Shown here one piece after another: positions 49,393 to 62,819 of a stretch of 64,000 nt of DNA. Source of the DNA: Patescibacteria group bacterium (GTDB taxonomy: Bacteria; Patescibacteriota; Patescibacteriia; PEXW01). The notes under the pieces are model-generated. The model was not told the DNA's origin. It saw only the letters and a program-made list of their open reading frames with translations, and ran no database searches. The stretch spans positions 103,202 through 167,201 of the forward strand of contig JBAYJA010000003.1 in NCBI GenBank assembly GCA_041665345.1. Reading direction: 5' to 3'. Position 1 is the first letter of the stretch. Each line of letters opens with the position of its first letter. The position numbers and the translations under genes are program-made.

Positions 49393-49606
49393 GGGGGGTA
49401 AAAGGTTTGGGTGTGGCGGCGAGTGGGGTTGGAGGGTGAGGGTGGTAGGTAAAAAATGTAGGTGCACAGCTTGCTGTGCGCGGGGTTTGTTATTTGCAAA
49501 TCGTCATTTCTACAACTCTGTCATTGCGAGGAACGAGTCCTTGAGTGACGCGGCAATCCCGCTGTAATACGGAATCCATTTTGTGTAAGTGATGGGTTGC
49601 TTGTTA

Positions 49607-50606: not shown

Positions 50607-50969
50607 ATGTTGTTTCCCATCGCGTATCCGAAACCAGAAGTCGCTGTCATTACCGTGACGGTGAAAGTTTTTGGGGTTTCTCCCGATACTCTCGGAATTC
50701 GTGAACAGGTGCAGGAGCTTTTGCGAGAAAAGAAAGTACAGCACTTTGTTCTTGATTTGCAACACGTTGATTGGATGAACAGCTCTGGACTCGGGCTGCT
50801 CATTAGCCTTCTGAAGTACATACGGGATGCTGATTGCACGCTTGCCCTGCTCTGTGTTTCTGGAAAAGTTGAAGGAATACTTTTGAACACGAAGCTGGAC
50901 AAGGTGCTCCAAAGTTATCCCACCCTGGATATGTACCTGGAGGCGCTCCACACCCAACCTGCTCGTTAA
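50607..50969 (+). CDS. STAS-domain protein, paralog 2
   Basis: 120 aa; terminator gctcaccc-ttttc-ggtgagc-ttttttt. Confidence 0.65.
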   Translation: MLFPIAYPKPEVAVITVTVKVFGVSPDTLGIREQVQELLREKKVQHFVLDLQHVDWMNSSGLGLLISLLKYIRDADCTLALLCVSGKVEGILLNTKLDKVLQSYPTLDMYLEALHTQPAR

Positions 50970-55223: not shown

Positions 55224-55421
55224 GAAGCAGCCGTAAAGCCGTAAGCCATAAAGCTATAAGGGCAATAGTGGTTTTTTCCTTTAGCATTTGGTCATAGGAA
55301 AATAGAGAGGGGCAAACCCGCCATCTCCACCTTCCGATCCATAACGCTACCCAAAACCAAAACCTTCATCCCCCCGCCCCCTCTTGACGCATTCCCCCAT
55401 TCCCAGTACACTCTCCTCACT

Positions 55422-55910
55422 ATGGTTTCTATCCGACTTAGCCGCACTGGCAAAAAGAATCACGCGACCTTCCGCTTTATCGTGTCTGATAAGCAGCGGG
55501 ACACGGTTGCGCCTGCTTTGGAAATCTTGGGCTGGTACGATCCACATACGAATCCTGGCACCATTGAAGTGAAAGCTGACCGGGTGCAGTACTGGCTGAG
55601 CAAAGGCGCCCAAGCTTCCCCCAGCGCGCACAATCTTTTGGTTACGGCCGGGGTTATCAAGGCTGACAAAGTTGTGGTCGCCAAAGCCAAGAAGAAGGAC
55701 GAACCCAAGGTTGAGGAAAAACCTGCAGCAGCCCCAAAGGCCGAAGCCCCCAAAGCCGAGGAGAAAAAGGAAGAAGCTCCGGCAAATGCAGAAGAGCCAA
55801 AGATTGAAGTACCCAAGGCTGAAGTAAAACCTGAAGAAAAGAAGGAAGAGGCTCCAGCTACTGAAGCACCGAAGGCGGAGGAGAAGAAAGCGGAAGAAAC
55901 GAAGAACTAG
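55422..55910 (+). CDS. rpsP: 30S ribosomal protein S16 with a Lys/Ala/Pro/Glu-rich C-terminal extension
   Basis: MVSIRLSRTGKKNHATFRFIVSDKQRDTVAPALEILGWYDP; terminator agagccgagaggctct-ttttct. Confidence 0.9.
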   Translation: MVSIRLSRTGKKNHATFRFIVSDKQRDTVAPALEILGWYDPHTNPGTIEVKADRVQYWLSKGAQASPSAHNLLVTAGVIKADKVVVAKAKKKDEPKVEEKPAAAPKAEAPKAEEKKEEAPANAEEPKIEVPKAEVKPEEKKEEAPATEAPKAEEKKAEETKN

Positions 55911-55958
55911 GAACCTAGAACGTAGAACAGAGAACCAGAGAGCCGAGAGGCTCTTTTT

Positions 55959-56043
55959 CTGTCATCCTGAGTCCCGTCGCGGGGCGAAGGATCTCCGAAG
56001 GTTGTACATTCTCAGGAGATCCTTCGAAGACTCAGGATGACAG
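55959..56043. repeat. Palindromic element, copy 1 (about 27-nt inverted arms GTCATCCTGAGTCTTCGAAGGATCTCC around a TTGTACATT-containing loop; the left arm carries a 12-nt insertion)
   Basis: ctgtcatcctgagtc[ccgtcgcggggc]gaaggatctccgaaggttgtacattctcaggagatccttcgaagactcaggatgacag. Confidence 0.8.
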
Positions 56044-56121
56044 AGGAGGATTTGACACCCCTCACCCCCAGACGTAAGCTGGGTGGAATGCACATTGAAA
56101 ACCCATTAGGAGGATCAGAAT

Positions 56122-56550
56122 ATGGCGAAGAAACAAGTTCGAAACATGAGAACCGTTTTGACTGCAGCCCAAGCTCGAAAAGCATCAAAACGTGGGCGGC
56201 AGATTGCGACCGTTGCACAAGAAAAGAAGCAGACTGAAGCGCAAGCAAATTGGGCCAAACATATTCTACAAGGCAAGAAGCTTGCCCCGGCGTACTTTTT
56301 GGAGACCGTGCAGCCCCAAATTGCAGCAGCGACCGCTCGGGGTCAGCATGCAGTTTCCATTACCGTGCACAACAATCAGGGAGAAAACTACAACCTCAGT
56401 CCTCTCCTGAGTGGTTTAGTGTCTGGTCTCCTCAAAAAGTTGAAAGGCTTGGGATACACAGCGACATCAAAGTCAAAGTATAACAAGACATTCGGTAGCG
56501 ATGACCCGTACGGTAACGCGACCTACTTCACCCTGGAAATTTCCTGGTAA
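56122..56550 (+). CDS. Hypothetical protein (142 aa)
   Basis: SD taggagg; TTGACA-like box at 56052 just after the palindromic element. Confidence 0.45.
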   Translation: MAKKQVRNMRTVLTAAQARKASKRGRQIATVAQEKKQTEAQANWAKHILQGKKLAPAYFLETVQPQIAAATARGQHAVSITVHNNQGENYNLSPLLSGLVSGLLKKLKGLGYTATSKSKYNKTFGSDDPYGNATYFTLEISW

Positions 56551-56597
56551 CGAACCTTTCCACCCTACTTTGCTGGGCAGAGCAAGAACTATAATCC

Positions 56598-56641
56598 CTA
56601 AACCATAGCCGACGGTAGACAACCTAGGTACTGGAGAAAAA
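56598..56641 (+). promoter_or_regulatory. Conserved 5' leader CTAAACCATAGCCGA(C/T)GG...CCTAGG...ACTGGAG(G)A, copy 1 of 3 (others 57358..57404 and 58148..58192), each preceded by a TATAAT-like -10
   Basis: Three-way alignment upstream of the paralogs P1-P3. Confidence 0.65.
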
Positions 56642-57238
56642 ATGGACAATGCACATCTCGACGCTTTCTTAAAACATCTGCAAGCCAAGCGTTTGCTCCT
56701 TCGAGTAAAAGAATATCAGGGTTCACCGCCTCACTTGCCGCGTCGCAAGATTTGGCTACTGACTTCGGTTAGTCCCGAGAAAACATCTCATACCAAGCCT
56801 CTCATTCAGGTAGTGTTTTCAGAATTCGTTACTGATGTAGTTAAGCCAATAATGACACTTGACGTGACATTAGGCACCATTTTGGATTTTGGTAAGACAA
56901 AGCAACATGGTGAGTTTTTTGACCAGATTTGGTCAGAATGGTCCCGAAACAACTTGTTGGGTCGTAATGTTACCCAAGAAGCAATACAGGTACGGCTTAT
57001 GCAAAATCCTGGACGGTCGGATTTCTCCTACCAATGCCCCGAGACGCTCTCGCTGTACTCGATTCAGCTTATGCTCTCATTTGGATCTTTACGAGCACTG
57101 CTTGTTCGTGAGATTGAGGGCGGATGGGGAGAGAGAGAAGTTGCACTCTCAGTGCTTTTCAAGCGATTCGATGGTTTTCTCAAAGAGTTGCAAAGTAATT
57201 GGAATACGGTTACCACGCAGCTCAAAATGATAGTCTAA
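56642..57238 (+). CDS. Fast-evolving cassette paralog P1 (198 aa), unknown function
   Basis: Shares with P2/P3 the N-terminal helix + (I/L)(I/L)VR motif and a C-terminal L..F.GF...I..G block; own terminator gacagtcctgcccgactgtc-ttttttt. Confidence 0.55.
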   Translation: MDNAHLDAFLKHLQAKRLLLRVKEYQGSPPHLPRRKIWLLTSVSPEKTSHTKPLIQVVFSEFVTDVVKPIMTLDVTLGTILDFGKTKQHGEFFDQIWSEWSRNNLLGRNVTQEAIQVRLMQNPGRSDFSYQCPETLSLYSIQLMLSFGSLRALLVREIEGGWGEREVALSVLFKRFDGFLKELQSNWNTVTTQLKMIV

Positions 57239-57404
57239 TATTACCAGACAGTCCTGCCCGACTGTCTTTTTTTTGACAAAAATATTCCCAAGGTGTTAAA
57301 TGAGTATTCGTACATTTACAATTCTCATAGGGCAATTTGGGAATATTTGATTTCACCCCTAAACCATAGCCGATGGCCCGTGCGCCTAGGCGATTGGAGG
57401 AATC

Positions 57405-57995
57405 ATGTCCACACCACAAGAAGATCCTAAGCTGCAAAAGCAGCTCGCATCAAGTTCACTTCTCGAGCTGGCGTCGACTAAAATTGTTGTTCGAACGCAC
57501 ACGGATGTTGAGTACCAGGATGCCGCATCTTTCGCTGCATGTAGAGAAGATCGCGCATTCTTTACAACTGAAGTTGTCTGCTTCGCAACTGCATTTACCG
57601 GAAAACCCGGCCTGCTTACCCGCGCAAGCATGGTTCTTGAAAGTAGATGTCATCCCGACCTTGCAAGTCGCATTGGCCTCCGCGTGTATGACCAGAGGAA
57701 AAGTGAAGATGTAGAGGAGCTTCGGGCCTACCTTGAAGATTGGATAGTACGTCGGCCAATTTGGTTGGAACCCTTGGCATCAGTCCATAGCCAGGCCAGC
57801 AATATTGTCCCAACGCACGTTCCTGTCGATGGCCGTTCAGTGCACCACTTACTCTGCTATGCAGCCATTGAAACTCGGCTACGTGCTATTCTTAGCCAAG
57901 ATGCCGCAATAGCATTGTCCTCTCGTTTCAGTGGGTTCTTTGATGCGAGAATCCAAGAATTACAGAGAAGCGGTCGTTACCTGCGGAATAGCTAG
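57405..57995 (+). CDS. Cassette paralog P2 (196 aa)
   Basis: Same promoter/leader/terminator architecture; terminator ggacagtcaatatcggctgtcc-tttttt. Confidence 0.55.
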   Translation: MSTPQEDPKLQKQLASSSLLELASTKIVVRTHTDVEYQDAASFAACREDRAFFTTEVVCFATAFTGKPGLLTRASMVLESRCHPDLASRIGLRVYDQRKSEDVEELRAYLEDWIVRRPIWLEPLASVHSQASNIVPTHVPVDGRSVHHLLCYAAIETRLRAILSQDAAIALSSRFSGFFDARIQELQRSGRYLRNS

Positions 57996-58192
57996 ATCTT
58001 TTCTCGTCGTTCACGAACGGCACGAAATAGAGGACAGTCAATATCGGCTGTCCTTTTTTATTTGACATGCTGCTACAAGCAGCGTTAGAGTAAGGCATTC
58101 GTTCATTCACAATCTTCTTAGGGCAGTTTGAAGATATTATAATCAATCTTAAACCATAGCCGACGGTAGAAACCTAGGCGACTGGAGGAAAT

Positions 58193-58729
58193 GTGACTAA
58201 AGAAAAAGATGCGTTGCTAGCCTTAGCACGCAAACAGATTATCGTCAGGTTTGCGATCACGTTGCATGAGAAGGAAATTCGGGGTGACCTCATTGTTTTT
58301 ACGGTCGTTCATTCCAAGGCAATACTCATCTACAAACGCTACAATCAGATGGGTCACACTTGGGAGCACAGTATTGATCAGGGCATGAGCACCTTTGATC
58401 TCAACATAGAACAGCGGCGCTCCGCATTTTGGAGTAATCTTGAGGGATTATCGAAGGCGTATACTTGTATTGATGCGTATTTTCCTGCGGAGCAGTTTGT
58501 TGGTCGGTTTACGACAGTGGATGCTAGTGGATGTGCGTGTTCGCCGTCAAGTCCATTTTTCCTGATGTGCTGCGCCTCGTTGTTCACTGAAATCGGCTTA
58601 GCAGCGTATCCAGAAACGTACATGAGCCGGGAAGAGCGTCATACTTTGCAAGATCGTCTCTCAAGTTTTATAGCCGATTACGTGAATCGAATTCGTCAAA
58701 CTGGATCGGCAATCTTTGTGAAGCAGTAG
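58193..58729 (+). CDS. Cassette paralog P3 (178 aa)
   Basis: GTG start after ctggagg; terminator ggacaggtctgcccacctgtcc-ttttttt. Confidence 0.55.
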   Translation: MTKEKDALLALARKQIIVRFAITLHEKEIRGDLIVFTVVHSKAILIYKRYNQMGHTWEHSIDQGMSTFDLNIEQRRSAFWSNLEGLSKAYTCIDAYFPAEQFVGRFTTVDASGCACSPSSPFFLMCCASLFTEIGLAAYPETYMSREERHTLQDRLSSFIADYVNRIRQTGSAIFVKQ

Positions 58730-58808
58730 GGGAATTTTTTAAGGACAGGTCTGCCCACCTGTCCTTTTTTTCGTACAAAAAAGGCGCTCCACACGGAACG
58801 CCAGCATG

Positions 58809-58988
58809 TTACTCACCTTGGTTTGCGGACTTTTTGATGATCCTCAGGCAAATCAACCAGGTGGCAATGATTGCGCCTACGCTTGACCAGACTACTGTTG
58901 TGTCCCAACTAGCTAGATAAGCCCCTAGAAAAAACAAGCATCCAAGGCATATGGAAATGTAGAGCATGCTTCTCTTACTTTTTTGCAT
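58809..58988 (-). CDS. Small membrane protein (59 aa), not in the ORF track (<60 aa)
   Basis: SD aggagaaaaa + ATG; MQKSKRSMLYISICLGCLFFLGAYLASWDTTVVWSSVGAIIATWLICLRIIKKSANQGE. Confidence 0.45.
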   Translation of the reverse strand: MQKSKRSMLYISICLGCLFFLGAYLASWDTTVVWSSVGAIIATWLICLRIIKKSANQGE

Positions 58989-59165
58989 TTTTTCTCCTCG
59001 TGAGCAGTGTTCATGGAATTTTGATTCACGCTAACATGTGAGAAGCGTATCGTCAATCCTACTAAAATAACGAATGGTTGCAGAAATACTCGGTATTAAA
59101 ATCGGCCTCATTTCCCAGAAAAAACTGACGGAAAAATTATTTTCCGTCAGGGGGGTTGCTGCCAC

Positions 59166-59396
59166 TTAGGCAAAAACGAGCATATCATCAACGAGCACTT
59201 CAATGGCTAATTCCTCGTTGCCAGTCAAATCAAGAACGAGTGAAGCAAAGTTTGCGTGCTCCCCGCCTATGGCCTTCATGATTGCGTGTTTCGCGGCTCG
59301 TTCCGCCAGGATGAGTCGGGCGTTTTCTTCTGGGTCAGTGGATCGCTGTTTTTCCGGGATCGTGCCCCGGCCGAAGCAGAGTGGGCAAGTATGCAT
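59166..59396 (-). CDS. Hypothetical small CxxC protein (76 aa)
   Basis: MHTCPLCFGRG...; terminator-like palindrome 59470..59510 further downstream, separated by about 0.1 kb. Confidence 0.35.
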   Translation of the reverse strand: MHTCPLCFGRGTIPEKQRSTDPEENARLILAERAAKHAIMKAIGGEHANFASLVLDLTGNEELAIEVLVDDMLVFA

Positions 59397-59772
59397 TTTT
59401 TCTCCAGTTCGTAAGTTTTTTGGTTTCGCATCAAGCCTATTCCTAAGGCTACCTGCGTGTCAAGGAGTGGTTTGGTCGATGAATAAAAAGACACTCTCCA
59501 GGGAGTGACCATGTTCGTTTCTCGTTTATTTCCCAATACCCACTACCCCCCTACGCTCAGAAGCTCCGGCGGGCGGGCAGCTCTACCCCTCGATTCGTCT
59601 GACTCACTCGGGGCTCCGACCAAAGCGTCGGAGCAGCTTTATACCTCTATACCTTCTTCTTTTGACACCCTCCCCTACCTCTGCTATTTTTTTAGCACAG
59701 CGATACCGGTCCTGAAGAGTCGCAGGATACACGGTTCCTGGCAGTCCTTTCCCCAGTTTAACCAACGCCGAT

Positions 59773-60135
59773 ATGGCCGAAGAGCAGTTTGAAGACGCGC
59801 AGTTTGTGGAGTTTGTGGTGAAGTCCATTGTGGACAACCCACAGGAAGTAAAGGTAGAACGCATTGTGGATGAAATGGGTGTGCTGTGCACGTTGCATGT
59901 GAACCCAGCAGACCTGGGTCAGGTCATTGGCCGCCAGGGGCAGACTGCCAAGAGCATTCGCACCTTGCTGCGGGTGGTGGGCGCCAAGAACCATGCCCGG
60001 GTGAACATGAAGATCTACGAACCCGAAGGCTACCGCAAGCACAAAGGGGAAATGGGTGGGAAGCGGATGGATGACCAACCCGCAGCCCCTGCTGCCGCGC
60101 CAAGTGAAGACCTGGCCGACGACCTGAAACTCTAA
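59773..60135 (+). CDS. khpA: KH-domain RNA-binding protein KhpA (UPF0109/YlqC) with an acidic/Pro-rich C-tail
   Basis: FVEFVVKSIVDNPQEVKVERIVDEMGVLCTLHVNPADLGQVIGRQGQTAKSIRTLLRVV. Confidence 0.8.
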   Translation: MAEEQFEDAQFVEFVVKSIVDNPQEVKVERIVDEMGVLCTLHVNPADLGQVIGRQGQTAKSIRTLLRVVGAKNHARVNMKIYEPEGYRKHKGEMGGKRMDDQPAAPAAAPSEDLADDLKL

Positions 60136-60252
60136 GTAATAAGAAAACTCCTGGTAGCACTACCGGGAGTTTTTGGTATAGACAGATTTTTTGCCTGGAG
60201 TATACTCATTTTGACATTGCCCTTTGGCGAACAGAAATCCTTGGAGGAAATC

Positions 60253-60279
60253 ATGTTTTATCCGGAAGATGGAGAATAG
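60253..60279 (+). CDS. Micro-ORF MFYPEDGE (8 aa)
   Basis: SD ttggagg 5 nt upstream; followed 1 nt later by the next micro-ORF. Confidence 0.35.
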   Translation: MFYPEDGE

Positions 60280-60280
60280 T

Positions 60281-60346
60281 ATGAAGCAGCTGCTCTATCC
60301 TGATGGCGGGGAGAAGCCACTGCGACACCCCGAAGACTCCGAATAG
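60281..60346 (+). CDS. Micro-ORF MKQLLYPDGGEKPLRHPEDSE (21 aa)
   Basis: ggag inside the upstream micro-ORF serves as SD; terminator agagcgaccaaatggccgctct-ttttttc follows. Confidence 0.4.
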   Translation: MKQLLYPDGGEKPLRHPEDSE

Positions 60347-60482
60347 GGTGAGACCCTGTTTAGCACATTCCGAAGAGCGACCAAATGGCCGCTCTTTTTT
60401 TCATCTTTACAAAAAGTTTGCTTTTTGCTACCTTTTGTTTATCGATCAGAGAAAAGAAATCCCTTCTTTGACTGGAGGTAGA

Positions 60483-60584
60483 ATGTCAAAAAAGTTCCTT
60501 GGTGCGGGCAGCGAAACGCAGAAGCTCTTTGATGCCAGTACAGGCTGTCACAGATCGCTCGGTGGCGGTATTGACGGCAGCTAA
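60483..60584 (+). CDS. Micro-ORF MSKKFLGAGSETQKLFDASTGCHRSLGGGIDGS (33 aa)
   Basis: SD ctggagg + tagaATG. Confidence 0.4.
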   Translation: MSKKFLGAGSETQKLFDASTGCHRSLGGGIDGS

Positions 60585-60705
60585 AGCCAAAAAAGCTGCG
60601 TCAGAACCCATGTTCATTATCAGGGCGTGCTAGCAATAGCCGCCCTTGATTTTCTATTTCTCAGGTGTAGTATGGGGATATCCAAACAAACATCGAGGTT
60701 GTGTA

Positions 60706-60738
60706 ATGAAAAAACTTGAACCTTCGGATGGAGGGTGA
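60706..60738 (+). CDS. Micro-ORF MKKLEPSDGG (10 aa)
   Basis: SD gagg; stop overlaps the SD of the next micro-ORF. Confidence 0.35.
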   Translation: MKKLEPSDGG

Positions 60739-60740
60739 TT

Positions 60741-60809
60741 ATGCGAGGTCAACTCCTTGACCCAACCATTGGCGGGTACCCAATGCGGGATCCCACTGAC
60801 GGCGGCTAG
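60741..60809 (+). CDS. Micro-ORF MRGQLLDPTIGGYPMRDPTDGG (22 aa)
   Basis: SD ggaggg; terminator agacggctactctctgagcagccgtct-ttttctt follows. Confidence 0.4.
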   Translation: MRGQLLDPTIGGYPMRDPTDGG

Positions 60810-60927
60810 AGCGAAGCGCTCAAGCCATACCTAGACGGCTACTCTCTGAGCAGCCGTCTTTTTCTTGACGCATTTTTTGGGTGATGGTAGACAGAGGGAA
60901 AGGAATGATACACATTGGAGGTAGAAA

Positions 60928-61350
60928 ATGCACATTGTTATTGAAGAGCATGGCGATTTGCTGGTTGTAGCAGTGGAAGGCAGATTGGAAAGTGGTCTTG
61001 AGGCGGCAGAATTGAGCAGGTATTTTTCCCAAGCGTTTCAGGCGAATCGAGGACTGATTGTTGACCTTTCTCAATGTGAGGAGCTTGGCCCGCCGGCCTG
61101 CAGCATTCTTGTATACTATGCGAGTAAGTACAAGACCGCGCAGCTCTTCCTCTGCCTGATCATTACACCAGAGCAAGAAGGATTGCAGCAGGTGCTTGCC
61201 TCGCAACTTTTCAATAATTTTTCCATCTTTGAGAATGTCGACTTGGCTGATGCTGCGTATGCGAAGAGTCCAGAGAAGCAGCGGGCCGATAACGCCCTCC
61301 TCAGGTACATGGCAGAGCGTGCGACTGATGCTGAGCTTCGAGGTGAGTAA
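60928..61350 (+). CDS. STAS-domain protein, paralog 3
   Basis: SD ttggagg; HIVIEEHGDLLVVAVEGRL...; terminator gggcgatcgaataccggtcgccc-ttttttt. Confidence 0.6.
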   Translation: MHIVIEEHGDLLVVAVEGRLESGLEAAELSRYFSQAFQANRGLIVDLSQCEELGPPACSILVYYASKYKTAQLFLCLIITPEQEGLQQVLASQLFNNFSIFENVDLADAAYAKSPEKQRADNALLRYMAERATDAELRGE

Positions 61351-61630
61351 TCCTGGGACACATACACCATGGGCGATCGAATACCGGTCGCCCTTTTTTT
61401 ATCCTTGTTCCCTCATTTGCAAAGATATATACTCTCGGCAGATCCTAGGAGGTCTCATGAAACGTATTGGGCTTGTTGATGGTGGTTTCTCCCCATTGCA
61501 TGAGGGAGACGACGGAGGGCAGCTCATTTTTGGGAAGCGGCTGGTGCATACTGGCCGCTTTTTCATATTCCCTTGACCCTGTTGAAGCTAGTTGCTAGGG
61601 TTGGGGCAAAGAAAACTGATTGGAGGTTTT

Positions 61631-61990
61631 TTGAAAATTAAAGTAAAAGCGCAAGGCCCACTTTTGGTCATAGCAATTGACGGCCGAATGGCCGTGCCAC
61701 ACGACATTGCAACCTTTGATGATCAACTGAGTGAAATTCGAAACGACGGTCGTGGAGTAATCATCGATCTCACCAAATGTGCGTGGATTCCTTCGTCGGG
61801 TTTAAGCATTCTCATTTACCAGTACAAGCAGTACCGCGGTGCGAAATTGCCAATTTGCATGGTCCTTGGTACCAACGATAAGATTGGCAGAATTATGGTC
61901 ATATCACGGCTAGCTGAAGTTTTCCAACAGTACAGTACTGTTGAGGAGGCTGCGGAGGGGATGACTTCAAGTTCTGATGCAAGGAAGTAG
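61631..61990 (+). CDS. STAS-domain protein, paralog 4
   Basis: TTG start after attggagg (the ORF track starts 13 codons upstream); LKIKVKAQGPLLVIAIDGRM...; terminator gggcgatccaatgtgggtcgccc-ttttttt. Confidence 0.55.
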   Translation: MKIKVKAQGPLLVIAIDGRMAVPHDIATFDDQLSEIRNDGRGVIIDLTKCAWIPSSGLSILIYQYKQYRGAKLPICMVLGTNDKIGRIMVISRLAEVFQQYSTVEEAAEGMTSSSDARK

Positions 61991-62055
61991 CAAGTCCTGC
62001 CTAACAGGTGAAAGTATTGTGTACGGGCGATCCAATGTGGGTCGCCCTTTTTTTA

Positions 62056-62133
62056 CTGTCATCCTGAGTCTTCGAAGGATCTCCAAAGTTTTTTACATTG
62101 TCTGGGGATCCTTCATATGATTCAGGATGACAG
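62056..62133. repeat. Palindromic element, copy 2 (same ~27-nt inverted arms as 55959..56043)
   Basis: ctgtcatcctgagtcttcgaaggatctccaaagttttttacattgtctggggatccttcatatgattcaggatgacag. Confidence 0.8.
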
Positions 62134-62171
62134 AGGGGAGGGCAGAGCCGCCAGTCTGCTACAATGGCAGT

Positions 62172-62819
62172 ATGCAATTCGACATTATTACCGTCATACC
62201 CGAAGCGTTTGGGTACCTGGAGCAGAGCATTCTGGGTCGGGCGCAGAAGGGCAAGAAAATCAGCGTTCGAATCCATGACCTACGGAAGTGGACCACGGAC
62301 AAGCACCGGACCGTGGATGACCGGCCGTATGGCGGCGGGCCAGGCATGCTCCTGAAAGCTGAACCACTGTACAAAGCAATTTCCGCGGTCAAGAAAAAGC
62401 GCGGCAAGGTAAAGGTCGTGCTGATGAGCGCAAAGGGTGAAAGTTTCACCCAGGCACTGGCTCGGAAGTGGACGAAGCTGGATCAGCTGGTCTTCATTGC
62501 TGGCCGGTACGAAGGCGTGGACGAGCGCGTGCTGCAGTACGTGGACGCAGAAATTTCCACGGGTGATTTTGTGCTGACTGGTGGTGAGCTGCCTGCCATG
62601 GCCATCATTGATGCCGTGGCGCGGTTGCTGCCTGGGGTGTTGGGCAAAGATGCTTCGAGTGCTGATGAGTCACACACGGAAGCTGGGCTCTTGGAGTACC
62701 CGCAGTACACCCGGCCAGAAGTGTTCAAGCGGAAGCGCGTGCCAAAGGAGCTCCTGTCTGGTGACCACAAAGTCATTGCCGCCTGGCGGCAGAAACACCG
62801 TACTCGGCGGAAGGTATGA
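62172..62819 (+). CDS. trmD: tRNA (guanine37-N1)-methyltransferase
   Basis: MQFDIITVIPEAF...RPYGGGPGMLLKAEP...FIAGRYEGVDERV...TGGELPAMAIIDAV. Confidence 0.9.
   Translation: MQFDIITVIPEAFGYLEQSILGRAQKGKKISVRIHDLRKWTTDKHRTVDDRPYGGGPGMLLKAEPLYKAISAVKKKRGKVKVVLMSAKGESFTQALARKWTKLDQLVFIAGRYEGVDERVLQYVDAEISTGDFVLTGGELPAMAIIDAVARLLPGVLGKDASSADESHTEAGLLEYPQYTRPEVFKRKRVPKELLSGDHKVIAAWRQKHRTRRKV

Follow-up and report, generated by a model that had tools for sequence, protein, structure and literature searches.

TGTC-tagged hairpin doublets between terminator and promoter in a Patescibacteria genome: probable members of a widespread REP-type repeat family

The stretch considered here (the window) comprises 64,000 nucleotides of the genome of a Patescibacteria group bacterium (GenBank assembly GCA_041665345.1, contig JBAYJA010000003.1, positions 103,202 to 167,201 of the forward strand; coordinates below count from its first letter). 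It contains two palindromic elements of about 80 nt, copy 1 at 55959-56043, downstream of rpsP, and copy 2 at 62056-62133, upstream of trmD. It seems probable that both are tag-outward (head-to-head, HH) doublets, similar to REPINs or bacterial interspersed mosaic elements (BIMEs), of a TGTC-tagged unit of the repetitive extragenic palindromic (REP) type, within the superfamily that takes in CGTC-tagged REPs, NTS and the Ssn-related motifs (SRM), and that each was inserted whole between a terminator and a promoter. The palindromes would thus be ordinary members of a very widespread family of small-hairpin repeats, and not a dedicated regulatory device.

Anatomy of the paired hairpin units

The sequence-only reading that drew attention to the two palindromes placed them correctly, and both are near-perfect. 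In copy 1, positions 55958-55973 pair with 56029-56044 at 100% and 55985-56005 with 56006-56026 at 81%, and in copy 2, 62056-62070 pair with 62119-62133 at 93%. The whole elements fold far better than shuffled sequences both as RNA (z = -7.2 for copy 1 and -9.4 for copy 2) and as DNA (-32.4 and -21.5 kcal/mol; z = -8.4 and -7.2, respectively).

Each element is made up of two units in inverted orientation on either side of a spacer. Copy 1 (CTGTCATCCTGAGTCCCGTCGCGGGGCGAAGGATCTCC-GAAGGTTGTACATTCTCA-GGAGATCCTTCGAAGACTCAGGATGACAG) has its left unit at 55960-55993 on the forward strand (TGTC-ATCCT-GA-GTCCCG(TCG)CGGGGC-GA-AGGAT-C, a variant with a long apical stem that matches the family pattern given below), a 24-nt spacer at 55994-56017 with complementary ends (TCC...GGA) and a TACATT core, and its right unit at 56018-56042 on the reverse strand. 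Copy 2 (CTGTCATCCTGAGTCTTCGAAGGATCTCC-AAAGTTTTTTACATTGTCTG-GGGATCCTTCATATGATTCAGGATGACAG) is a doublet of the same type, in which the left unit (62057-62081, forward strand) and the right unit of copy 1 both read TGTC-ATCCT-GA-GTCTTC-GA-AGGAT-C; a 25-nt spacer (62082-62106), containing a -35-like TTTACA from 62092, separates it from a degenerate right unit on the reverse strand (62107-62132; TGTC-ATCCT-GA-ATCATAT-GA-AGGAT-C). The layout is therefore a TGTC tag, AT, three paired bases, GA, a variable apical part (here GTCTTC, GTCCCGTCGCGGGGC or ATCATAT), GA, three paired bases, AT and a final C, and at their ends the arms read ...AGGAT-C-TCC or -CCC. The pattern GTC-ATNNN-GA-N(4-30)-GA-NNNAT-C holds for each of the four, and their stems pair perfectly.

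This subdivision alters several details of the first description. The 27-nt inverted arms reported there correspond to a 27-mer, GTCATCCTGAGTCTTCGAAGGATCTCC, which is indeed common to both copies and occurs exactly twice in the window (56015-56041 on the reverse strand and 62058-62084 on the forward strand; none expected from 100 shuffles), but it is exact in only two of the four arms, that on the right of copy 2 being degenerate (GTCATCCTGAATCATATGAAGGATCCCC). A loop motif thought to be shared, TGTACATT, shrinks to the core TACATT, copy 2 reading TTTTACATT. The left arm of copy 1, described as carrying an inserted 12-nt GC hairpin, does have a longer apical stem than the other arms, but the net gain is 9 nt and the difference is a normal variation in apical length; as DNA, this unit is predicted to fold with a 5-bp basal and a 6-bp apical stem (-6.8 kcal/mol).

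To the right of each doublet is a short tail on the forward strand, GAGGAGGA in copy 1 (56043-56050) and its counterpart GAGGGGA in copy 2 (62133-62139). Similarity between the copies ends with the element and this GAGG(A/G)G tail, and the flanks, including the upstream terminators and the downstream sequences, are unrelated. The chance that the two copies are by-products of the duplication of a larger local block, which the first description had named as what would refute it, can be put at next to nothing: there are only two doublets in the window, 6.1 kb apart, but the end of similarity at the element and its tail excludes duplication of a larger block, and elements of this type are dispersed world-wide.

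A dispersed family of tagged units

When public collections were searched with the pattern GTCATCCTGAG-N2-24-GAAGGATC, at least 120 loci were found in IMG/VR viral contigs and at least 120 in GTDB genomes, the latter from at least 14 phyla. Among the matches listed are Chloroflexota, Acidobacteriota, Bacteroidota, Bacillota, Planctomycetota, Omnitrophota and Patescibacteria (Saccharibacteria, Komeilibacteria), as well as Gemmatimonadota, Nitrospirota, Cyanobacteria, Pseudomonadota, Verrucomicrobiota, Fibrobacter and others. The same doublets occur at other loci of the candidate phyla radiation (CPR) and of Omnitrophota, and one of the latter (L206) also has the long apical variant of copy 1.

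A looser pattern, GTC(ATNNN)GA(N4-30)GA(NNNAT)C, brought together 556 distinct units. Outside the stem type searched for, the free stem positions are perfectly complementary in 174 of 214 units (about 1.6% would be so by chance), and there are at least eight stem types (ATCCT, ATTCT, ATCCC, ATGCT, ATTCC, ATTTC, ATCTC and ATGTT). The base 5' of GTC is T in 80% of the 556 and C in 15%. The family unit is a (C/T)GTC tag, A-T, three covarying pairs, GA/GA purine mismatches, a variable apical stem-loop, A-T and C. In 147 units, GCGNAGC or GCGNNAGC makes up the entire apical part; d(GCGNAGC) is an extraordinarily stable DNA mini-hairpin (PMC13037366), and its presence fits a structure formed in single-stranded DNA (ssDNA), although the motif is in none of the four window arms.

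Neighbouring units no more than 150 nt apart are mostly HH (132 cases, against 28 tail-to-tail, TT, and 19 head-to-tail, HT), with a median HH spacer of 24 nt, close to the 24 and 25 nt in the window. The two units of a doublet are often of different stem types (85 heterodimers against 47 homodimers), from which it follows that compensation preserves the stem within each unit, and not the long hairpin between the arms. Many loci are multi-copy; in IMG/VR contig L107, the last c. 450 bases consist of five HH doublets in tandem with a period of 87 nt, like a BIME cluster. Separately, a metagenome contig (L248) has tandem repeats of 21-22 nt made from the 5' half of the unit only.

The nearest published relatives are the CGTC-tagged REPs, in which the tag (CGTC or TGTC, also CCTC) is unpaired, the first two stem positions are A-T, and HH dimers predominate, with spacers of 20-100 nt that often have complementary ends; most lie between genes, near the 3' end of the one upstream, a transposase associated with them was not found, and the superfamily includes dRS3 of Neisseria and RPE-4/6 of Rickettsia (Di Nocera et al., 2013; PMC3733652). 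The window arms have the unpaired TGTC tag and A-T at stem positions 1 and 2; HH dimers likewise predominate in their family, the two copies are intergenic and near the 3' end of an upstream gene, their spacers have complementary ends, and no transposase is known. They differ from the published stem of 8-9 bp, loop of 4-5 nt and 3-nt tail (mostly CCA) in the GA mismatches within the stem, the apical part of 4-30 nt and a tail of CTC or CCC, and the published hosts are five phyla, without CPR (PMC3733652). A scan of 50 kb of Sinorhizobium pSymB found no textbook CGTC REPs.

REPINs and BIMEs are likewise intergenic, with two inverted REP hairpins forming one long hairpin, the doublet as the apparent copying unit, and subtypes alternating within doublets; their tag is GTAG and their partner a Y1 HUH transposase, the REP-associated tyrosine transposase or RAYT (Bertels and Rainey, 2011; Nunvar, 2010; reviewed in PMC6006769). 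Here, the tag is TGTC instead of GTAG, and no Y1 (HUH) transposase was seen among the recurrent open reading frame (ORF) families near units or in the gene and Pfam lists of about 42 kb of the contig.

No curated RNA family accounts for the repeat. At the gathering threshold, Rfam 15 matched only tRNAs in the window and nothing in 13 loci rich in canonical units, and at E up to 10, only chance-level matches appeared in 55400-62700. No match at E up to 0.01 was found when a canonical doublet was compared by blastn with plasmids, and copy 1 with phages, and a literature search by sequence strings returned only primer coincidences. Among other structures considered, the hammerhead core was dropped because CUGANGA/GAAA is lacking and an integron attC site because there is no GTTRRRY; a C/D-box k-turn, a dif/Xer site and a CRISPR repeat were each dropped on sequence grounds.

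A third unit in the window, single, degenerate and of another stem type, lies in an intergenic gap at 49519-49558 on the forward strand (TGTC-ATTGC-GAGG...GCG-GCAAT-C; in full, TGTC-ATTGC-GAGGAACGAGTCCTTGAGTGACGCG-GCAAT-C), and a closely similar unit is found near the contig start in a relative (L250). No further units were present in about 7 kb of additional contig flanking the window.

Insertion, turnover and surrounding genes

An empty site for copy 1 is provided by a relative (L125, TrmD 74% identical) with the gene order SMC-rpsP-KH-one gene-trmD-MFS (major facilitator superfamily). In the window, rpsP is followed by an intrinsic-terminator-like hairpin and T-run (55937-55958, forward strand; a predicted 8-bp hairpin, then UUUUU) that is homologous to the L125 terminator AGAGCTGCCAGGCTCTTTTTT. 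In L125, this terminator is fused straight to a promoter-like box, TTGACACCC, with no element in between (...AGAGCTGCCAGGCTCTTTTTTGACACCC...); the junction reads GGCTCTTTTTTGACACCC, where the window reads GGCTCTTTTT-[C TGTCAT...ATGACA GAGGAGGA TT]-TGACACCC. (This reading is based on inspection of the sequences and on a local alignment; both MAFFT and a global aligner put the right flank in the wrong place.) The -35-like box of the window, TTTGACACCC (56051-56060, forward strand), is the one that in L125 adjoins the T-run directly. Because the homologous terminator in L125 runs uninterrupted into the next box, copy 1 with its tail is an insertion of about 94 nt at the junction between T-run and -35 box. 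A search for a target-site duplication there, as the sequence-only reading had advised, gave an ambiguous TT from the comparison with L125, and no clear duplication.

The trmD site is polymorphic among close relatives, in both presence and type of unit: there is none in L124 (TrmD 90% identical), the contig of L123 (95%) starts inside an ATTGC-type unit at the same place, L251 (71%) has a truncated ATTGC-type unit directly after the upstream terminator, and L250 (78%) has only a degenerate relic. Homology to these relatives restarts at GGGCAGAG, immediately after the GAGGGGA tail, so the tail has to be counted with the element and not taken for a Shine-Dalgarno sequence. The SD-like gagg(a/g)gg of the first description is accordingly a part of the repeat, being present in both copies and missing from the empty site, and the ORF at 56122 has an AGGAGGA of its own about 70 nt beyond the GAGG tail.

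Of the explanations originally offered, a MITE-like insertion (miniature inverted-repeat transposable element) comes closest, given the empty site, the relatives with no unit or another type, and the dispersed family. Defined target-site duplications, and DDE insertion sequences to which they are related, are typical of MITEs. The elements here resemble MITEs such as the Correia elements of Neisseria in being short and non-coding, with terminal inverted repeats, in lying between genes and in being able to carry promoter-like sequences, but their 'terminal inverted repeats' are self-pairing hairpin units, there is no clear duplication, no parent insertion sequence was found and no DDE-transposase partner was seen beside any copy examined, so that they do not appear to be classical MITEs.

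The positions of the elements between a terminator and the next promoter stand as first described. Both lie directly after an intrinsic terminator, 49-66 nt 3' of a stop codon, that of copy 2 (62025-62054, forward strand; 10 pairs, seven of them G-C, then TTTTTTT) following the STAS gene at 61592-61990. This might suggest a role in RNA, in which a hairpin read through from rpsP or the STAS gene would serve as a back-up terminator or insulator, as a stabilizer of the 3' end, or as an RNase III site separating transcripts. Such a role would suit the exact placement, the great stability of the hairpins (-67 and -65 kcal/mol with the terminators included in the segments folded; z -7.2 and -9.4), the presence of an RNase III gene nearby on the contig and the stabilization of upstream mRNA by REPs in Escherichia coli (cited in PMC6006769). 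We nevertheless regard it as unlikely to be the explanation of the elements. Little transcript is expected 3' of a good intrinsic terminator; the hairpins are not themselves intrinsic terminators, having GAGGAGGA or GAGGGGA on their 3' side in place of a T-run; the GA...GA asymmetry, once per DNA strand, is a symmetry at the level of DNA; covariation keeps the stem within each arm even where pairing between arms is broken (the 85 heterodimers against 47 homodimers); no Rfam family matches; and close relatives manage without an element at these sites. Some effect on RNA is possible as a side effect, although conservation at the level of the family does not point there.

It is very improbable that the palindromes are operators for a palindrome-recognizing regulator of the 56122 ORF and trmD. 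They do lie upstream of genes, and copy 2 contains a sigma70-like match facing trmD (TTTACA-18-TATGAT, 10/12, 62092-62121) with its -10-like half in the right unit, a match that is not conserved in copy 1. However, the family is found beside unrelated genes in no fewer than 14 phyla and in viral contigs, the palindromes are missing upstream of the same genes in close relatives, and operators do not look like palindromes of 80 nt with hairpins nested in them. There is no support for the dedicated insulator, processing site or operator that had been suggested, and the elements are better viewed as inserted REP-type doublets.

The order of genes around them is SMC, rpsP (55422-55910), terminator, copy 1, six ORFs without a family match (56122-59396), a khpA-type KH gene (59773-60135), STAS genes (60928-61350 and 61592-61990), terminator, copy 2, trmD and MFS. 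The public trmD call, of 230 residues, starts at an ATG within the right arm of copy 2 (ggATGaca, 62127). TrmD homologues have 213-215 residues and begin MQFDII, which in the window corresponds to 62172, with TACAAT nine nt upstream (62157-62162); judged from these comparisons, 62172 is most likely the true start, which suggests that the trmD leader is very short or absent. The closest named TrmD homologues are from 'Patescibacteria group', Parcubacteria and Kerfeldbacteria metagenome-assembled genomes.

The six ORFs occupy a 3.6-kb segment (56061-59660) that is missing in L125 and has a lower G+C content (0.45-0.50, compared with 0.57 for SMC, khpA and trmD). Its borders are marked by TTTGACACCC at 56051 and by a second copy of this box at 59661-59671, upstream of khpA, which is part of the khpA promoter-like TTGACA-17-TATTTT. 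None of the ORFs had a Pfam or PADLOC match, and one had a weak PHROG match of unknown function. With one doublet at each end, the entire variable stretch from rpsP to trmD is enclosed, an arrangement that recalls the NTS/dRS3 repeats around variable genes in Neisseria, although here at a single locus.

Terminator hairpins whose T-run passes into a TTGACA -35-like box recur at 57246-57270, 58029-58067 and 59655-59690, and the genes of the region appear to be packed as cassettes in which terminator and promoter are fused, copy 1 splitting one such junction. There are several short STAS-domain paralogues (60928-61350, 61592-61990, and also at about 50607-50969); the two STAS genes upstream of trmD are followed by almost identical terminators (GGGCGATC..GGTCGCCC; 61371-61393 and 62025-62047), from which it seems that a STAS cassette was recently duplicated in tandem. 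Finally, a different, GC-rich family of palindromes (GCGGGCAGAGACGCCCGCG-like) lies downstream of rpsP and upstream of trmD in relatives (L250, 3680-3740; L251, 8150-8260 and 9950-9975), of which the window keeps only the remnant GGGCAGAGCCGCC at 62140-62152.

Small GIY-YIG nucleases as candidate partners

SsnA is a single-domain GIY-YIG protein of 94 residues that binds the 28-nt NTS CGTCATTCCCGCGMAVGCGGGAATCYRG (extended from dRS3) and cuts a few nucleotides 5' of it, acting on ssDNA only, on one strand only and not on RNA (Chenal et al., 2025; PMC11893778). The three bases 5' of the NTS palindrome are critical for cutting and the C 3' of it for binding, and ssn genes are typically flanked by SRM (PMC11893778). 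The units described here share with NTS and SRM a (C/T)GTC tag directly 5' of a palindrome that begins and ends with AT and is followed by C, an orientation set by the non-palindromic flanks, and a dispersed, multi-copy distribution. All four window arms carry the HGTC tag in the form TGTC-AT..., with the C and tail also fitting the RNCYNB end, and head and tail both match in 394 of the 556 units.

Units of the same subfamily also occur in a unit-gene-unit layout around small single-domain GIY-YIG genes in three other lineages. A hidden Markov model (HMM) of small GIY-YIG proteins, run against all ORFs of about 240 fetched loci, had three matches, each of which adjoins units. In Hymenobacter glaciei (L229), a protein of 93 residues (PF01541, E = 3.8e-18) is encoded between one unit and one HH doublet, of the ATCCT type; in a member of the Cyclobacteriaceae (L133), a degraded GIY-YIG gene is bracketed by two unit pairs; and in an alphaproteobacterium (L225), a CGTC-tagged doublet lies 60 nt upstream of the gene. 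In other Hymenobacter, an orthologue (in the order ribonucleotide reductase small subunit-GIY-YIG-DUF1348) is flanked on both sides by HH doublets with stems compensated to ATGCT/AGCAT, although the Hymenobacter look-ups returned one orthologous locus many times and so represent few independent cases. These proteins are assigned to the GIY-YIG class at the level of PF01541.

The small GIY-YIG gene is the only recurrent gene tightly linked to units. Clustering of ORFs of at least 100 residues around units in about 240 loci (a cut-off that excludes GIY-YIG genes of about 93 residues) gave phage structural and generic families only, and no recurrent transposase. This bears on a further alternative, that the doublets are non-autonomous elements (MITE or REPIN) mobilized not by Ssn but by a transposase, either a RAYT/IS200-type Y1 HUH enzyme or that of an insertion sequence with arm-like ends. 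The architecture is that of REPINs and BIMEs (PMC6006769), the empty site reveals an insertion, the asymmetric tail moves with the element, and the TT at copy 1 could be a duplication. Yet there is no GTAG tag, no recurrent transposase among the ORFs of at least 100 residues and no convincing target-site duplication, REPs of the CGTC type were not adjacent to Y1 transposase genes in the published survey (PMC3733652), and the sole recurrent, tightly linked gene is that for the small GIY-YIG protein; we therefore think this alternative quite unlikely.

On the reading preferred here, the units would be recognized as folded ssDNA by a cognate Ssn-type GIY-YIG nuclease, an extension to this organism that draws on the same architecture and the same gene association elsewhere. 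The doublet may well spread as a whole, because both copies have the spacer and the tail in common. Those in the window would essentially be passengers in the harmless gap between terminator and promoter, and as side effects might add a further hairpin obstacle to read-through and locally influence the recombination of incoming ssDNA.

Several observations weigh against this interpretation. Three of the four arms, those with minimal apical parts, form only weak folds as isolated DNA (-1.7 to -2.6 kcal/mol, not surpassing shuffled sequences), and the long hairpin between the arms is much more stable than the single arms; the predicted folds suggest that the window arms may no longer function as separate hairpins. 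No GIY-YIG gene was found in the window or in the additional c. 7 kb of contig (about 72 kb of this genome in all), and the loci showing the GIY-YIG link include no Patescibacteria. The weak folding of these arms and the lack of an ssn gene in the sequence read weaken the case for recognition by an Ssn nuclease. Furthermore, only five units were found in the c. 72 kb; elsewhere, the 24-mer arm in its exact form is seldom met (in three JGI metagenome contigs, where its context differs), and nothing points to recent proliferation. The full published SRM pattern, HGTCWYN(0-2)YYVSBRHN(0-5)WNVSBRGN(0-2)RNCYNB, is matched by none of the 556 units, nor anywhere in the window or its relatives, while NTS and NTSvar pass as positive controls. 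Lastly, even in Neisseria, how units of this sort are copied has yet to be established.

The units also differ from NTS and SRM in having a stem of five Watson-Crick pairs with GA/GA mismatches and a variable apical stem, and not the GC-rich YYVSBR type, in having no ssn gene in sight near the window copies, and in their host, Patescibacteria not being mentioned in the text of PMC11893778. The family is absent from Rfam and missed by the published Ssn-motif pattern, yet it flanks small GIY-YIG genes in three lineages.

Small GIY-YIG proteins form a large family (6180 clusters at E up to 0.001 in a representative library). In that library and its cluster names, no CPR homologue was found, ten sampled clusters being from Bacteroidota or unnamed, and a profile search of viral contigs found no relative. 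In many of the homologues (library matches P0248-P0390), the annotated protein has 30-60 additional residues N-terminal to the domain, which could come from gene calls that start inside flanking repeat units, as for trmD. In groundwater Patescibacteria, GIY-YIG-domain proteins are listed among the genes predicted to have been donated to other bacteria, and competence genes are widespread (PMC12455944).

What is known, then, is the kind of repeat, and its general interest is modest, resting on the breadth of the subfamily and its escape from existing search patterns. The palindromes are dispersed REP-like repeats and not a regulatory invention of this locus, and copy 2 has misled annotation, the public trmD call beginning at an ATG within it. 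The unit definition GTC-ATNNN-GA-apical-GA-NNNAT-C, mostly in tag-outward doublets, covers a family that reaches viral contigs and at least 14 phyla, with Patescibacteria among its hosts. If the link with Ssn is real, the known target range of that nuclease family would widen considerably, and the repeats would become markers for recombination hot spots in streamlined genomes. A more speculative idea, to which we give only a small chance, is that doublets in Patescibacteria are working sites for an Ssn-type single-strand nuclease and delimit exchangeable gene cassettes, here the lower-GC rpsP-trmD stretch. In that event, cuts in incoming ssDNA would shape the gain and loss of cassettes during natural transformation, on which these tiny-genome bacteria have been proposed to rely, and the published pattern would have overlooked a very large branch of Ssn targets, pan-bacterial and viral, in the form of the GA-mismatch units.

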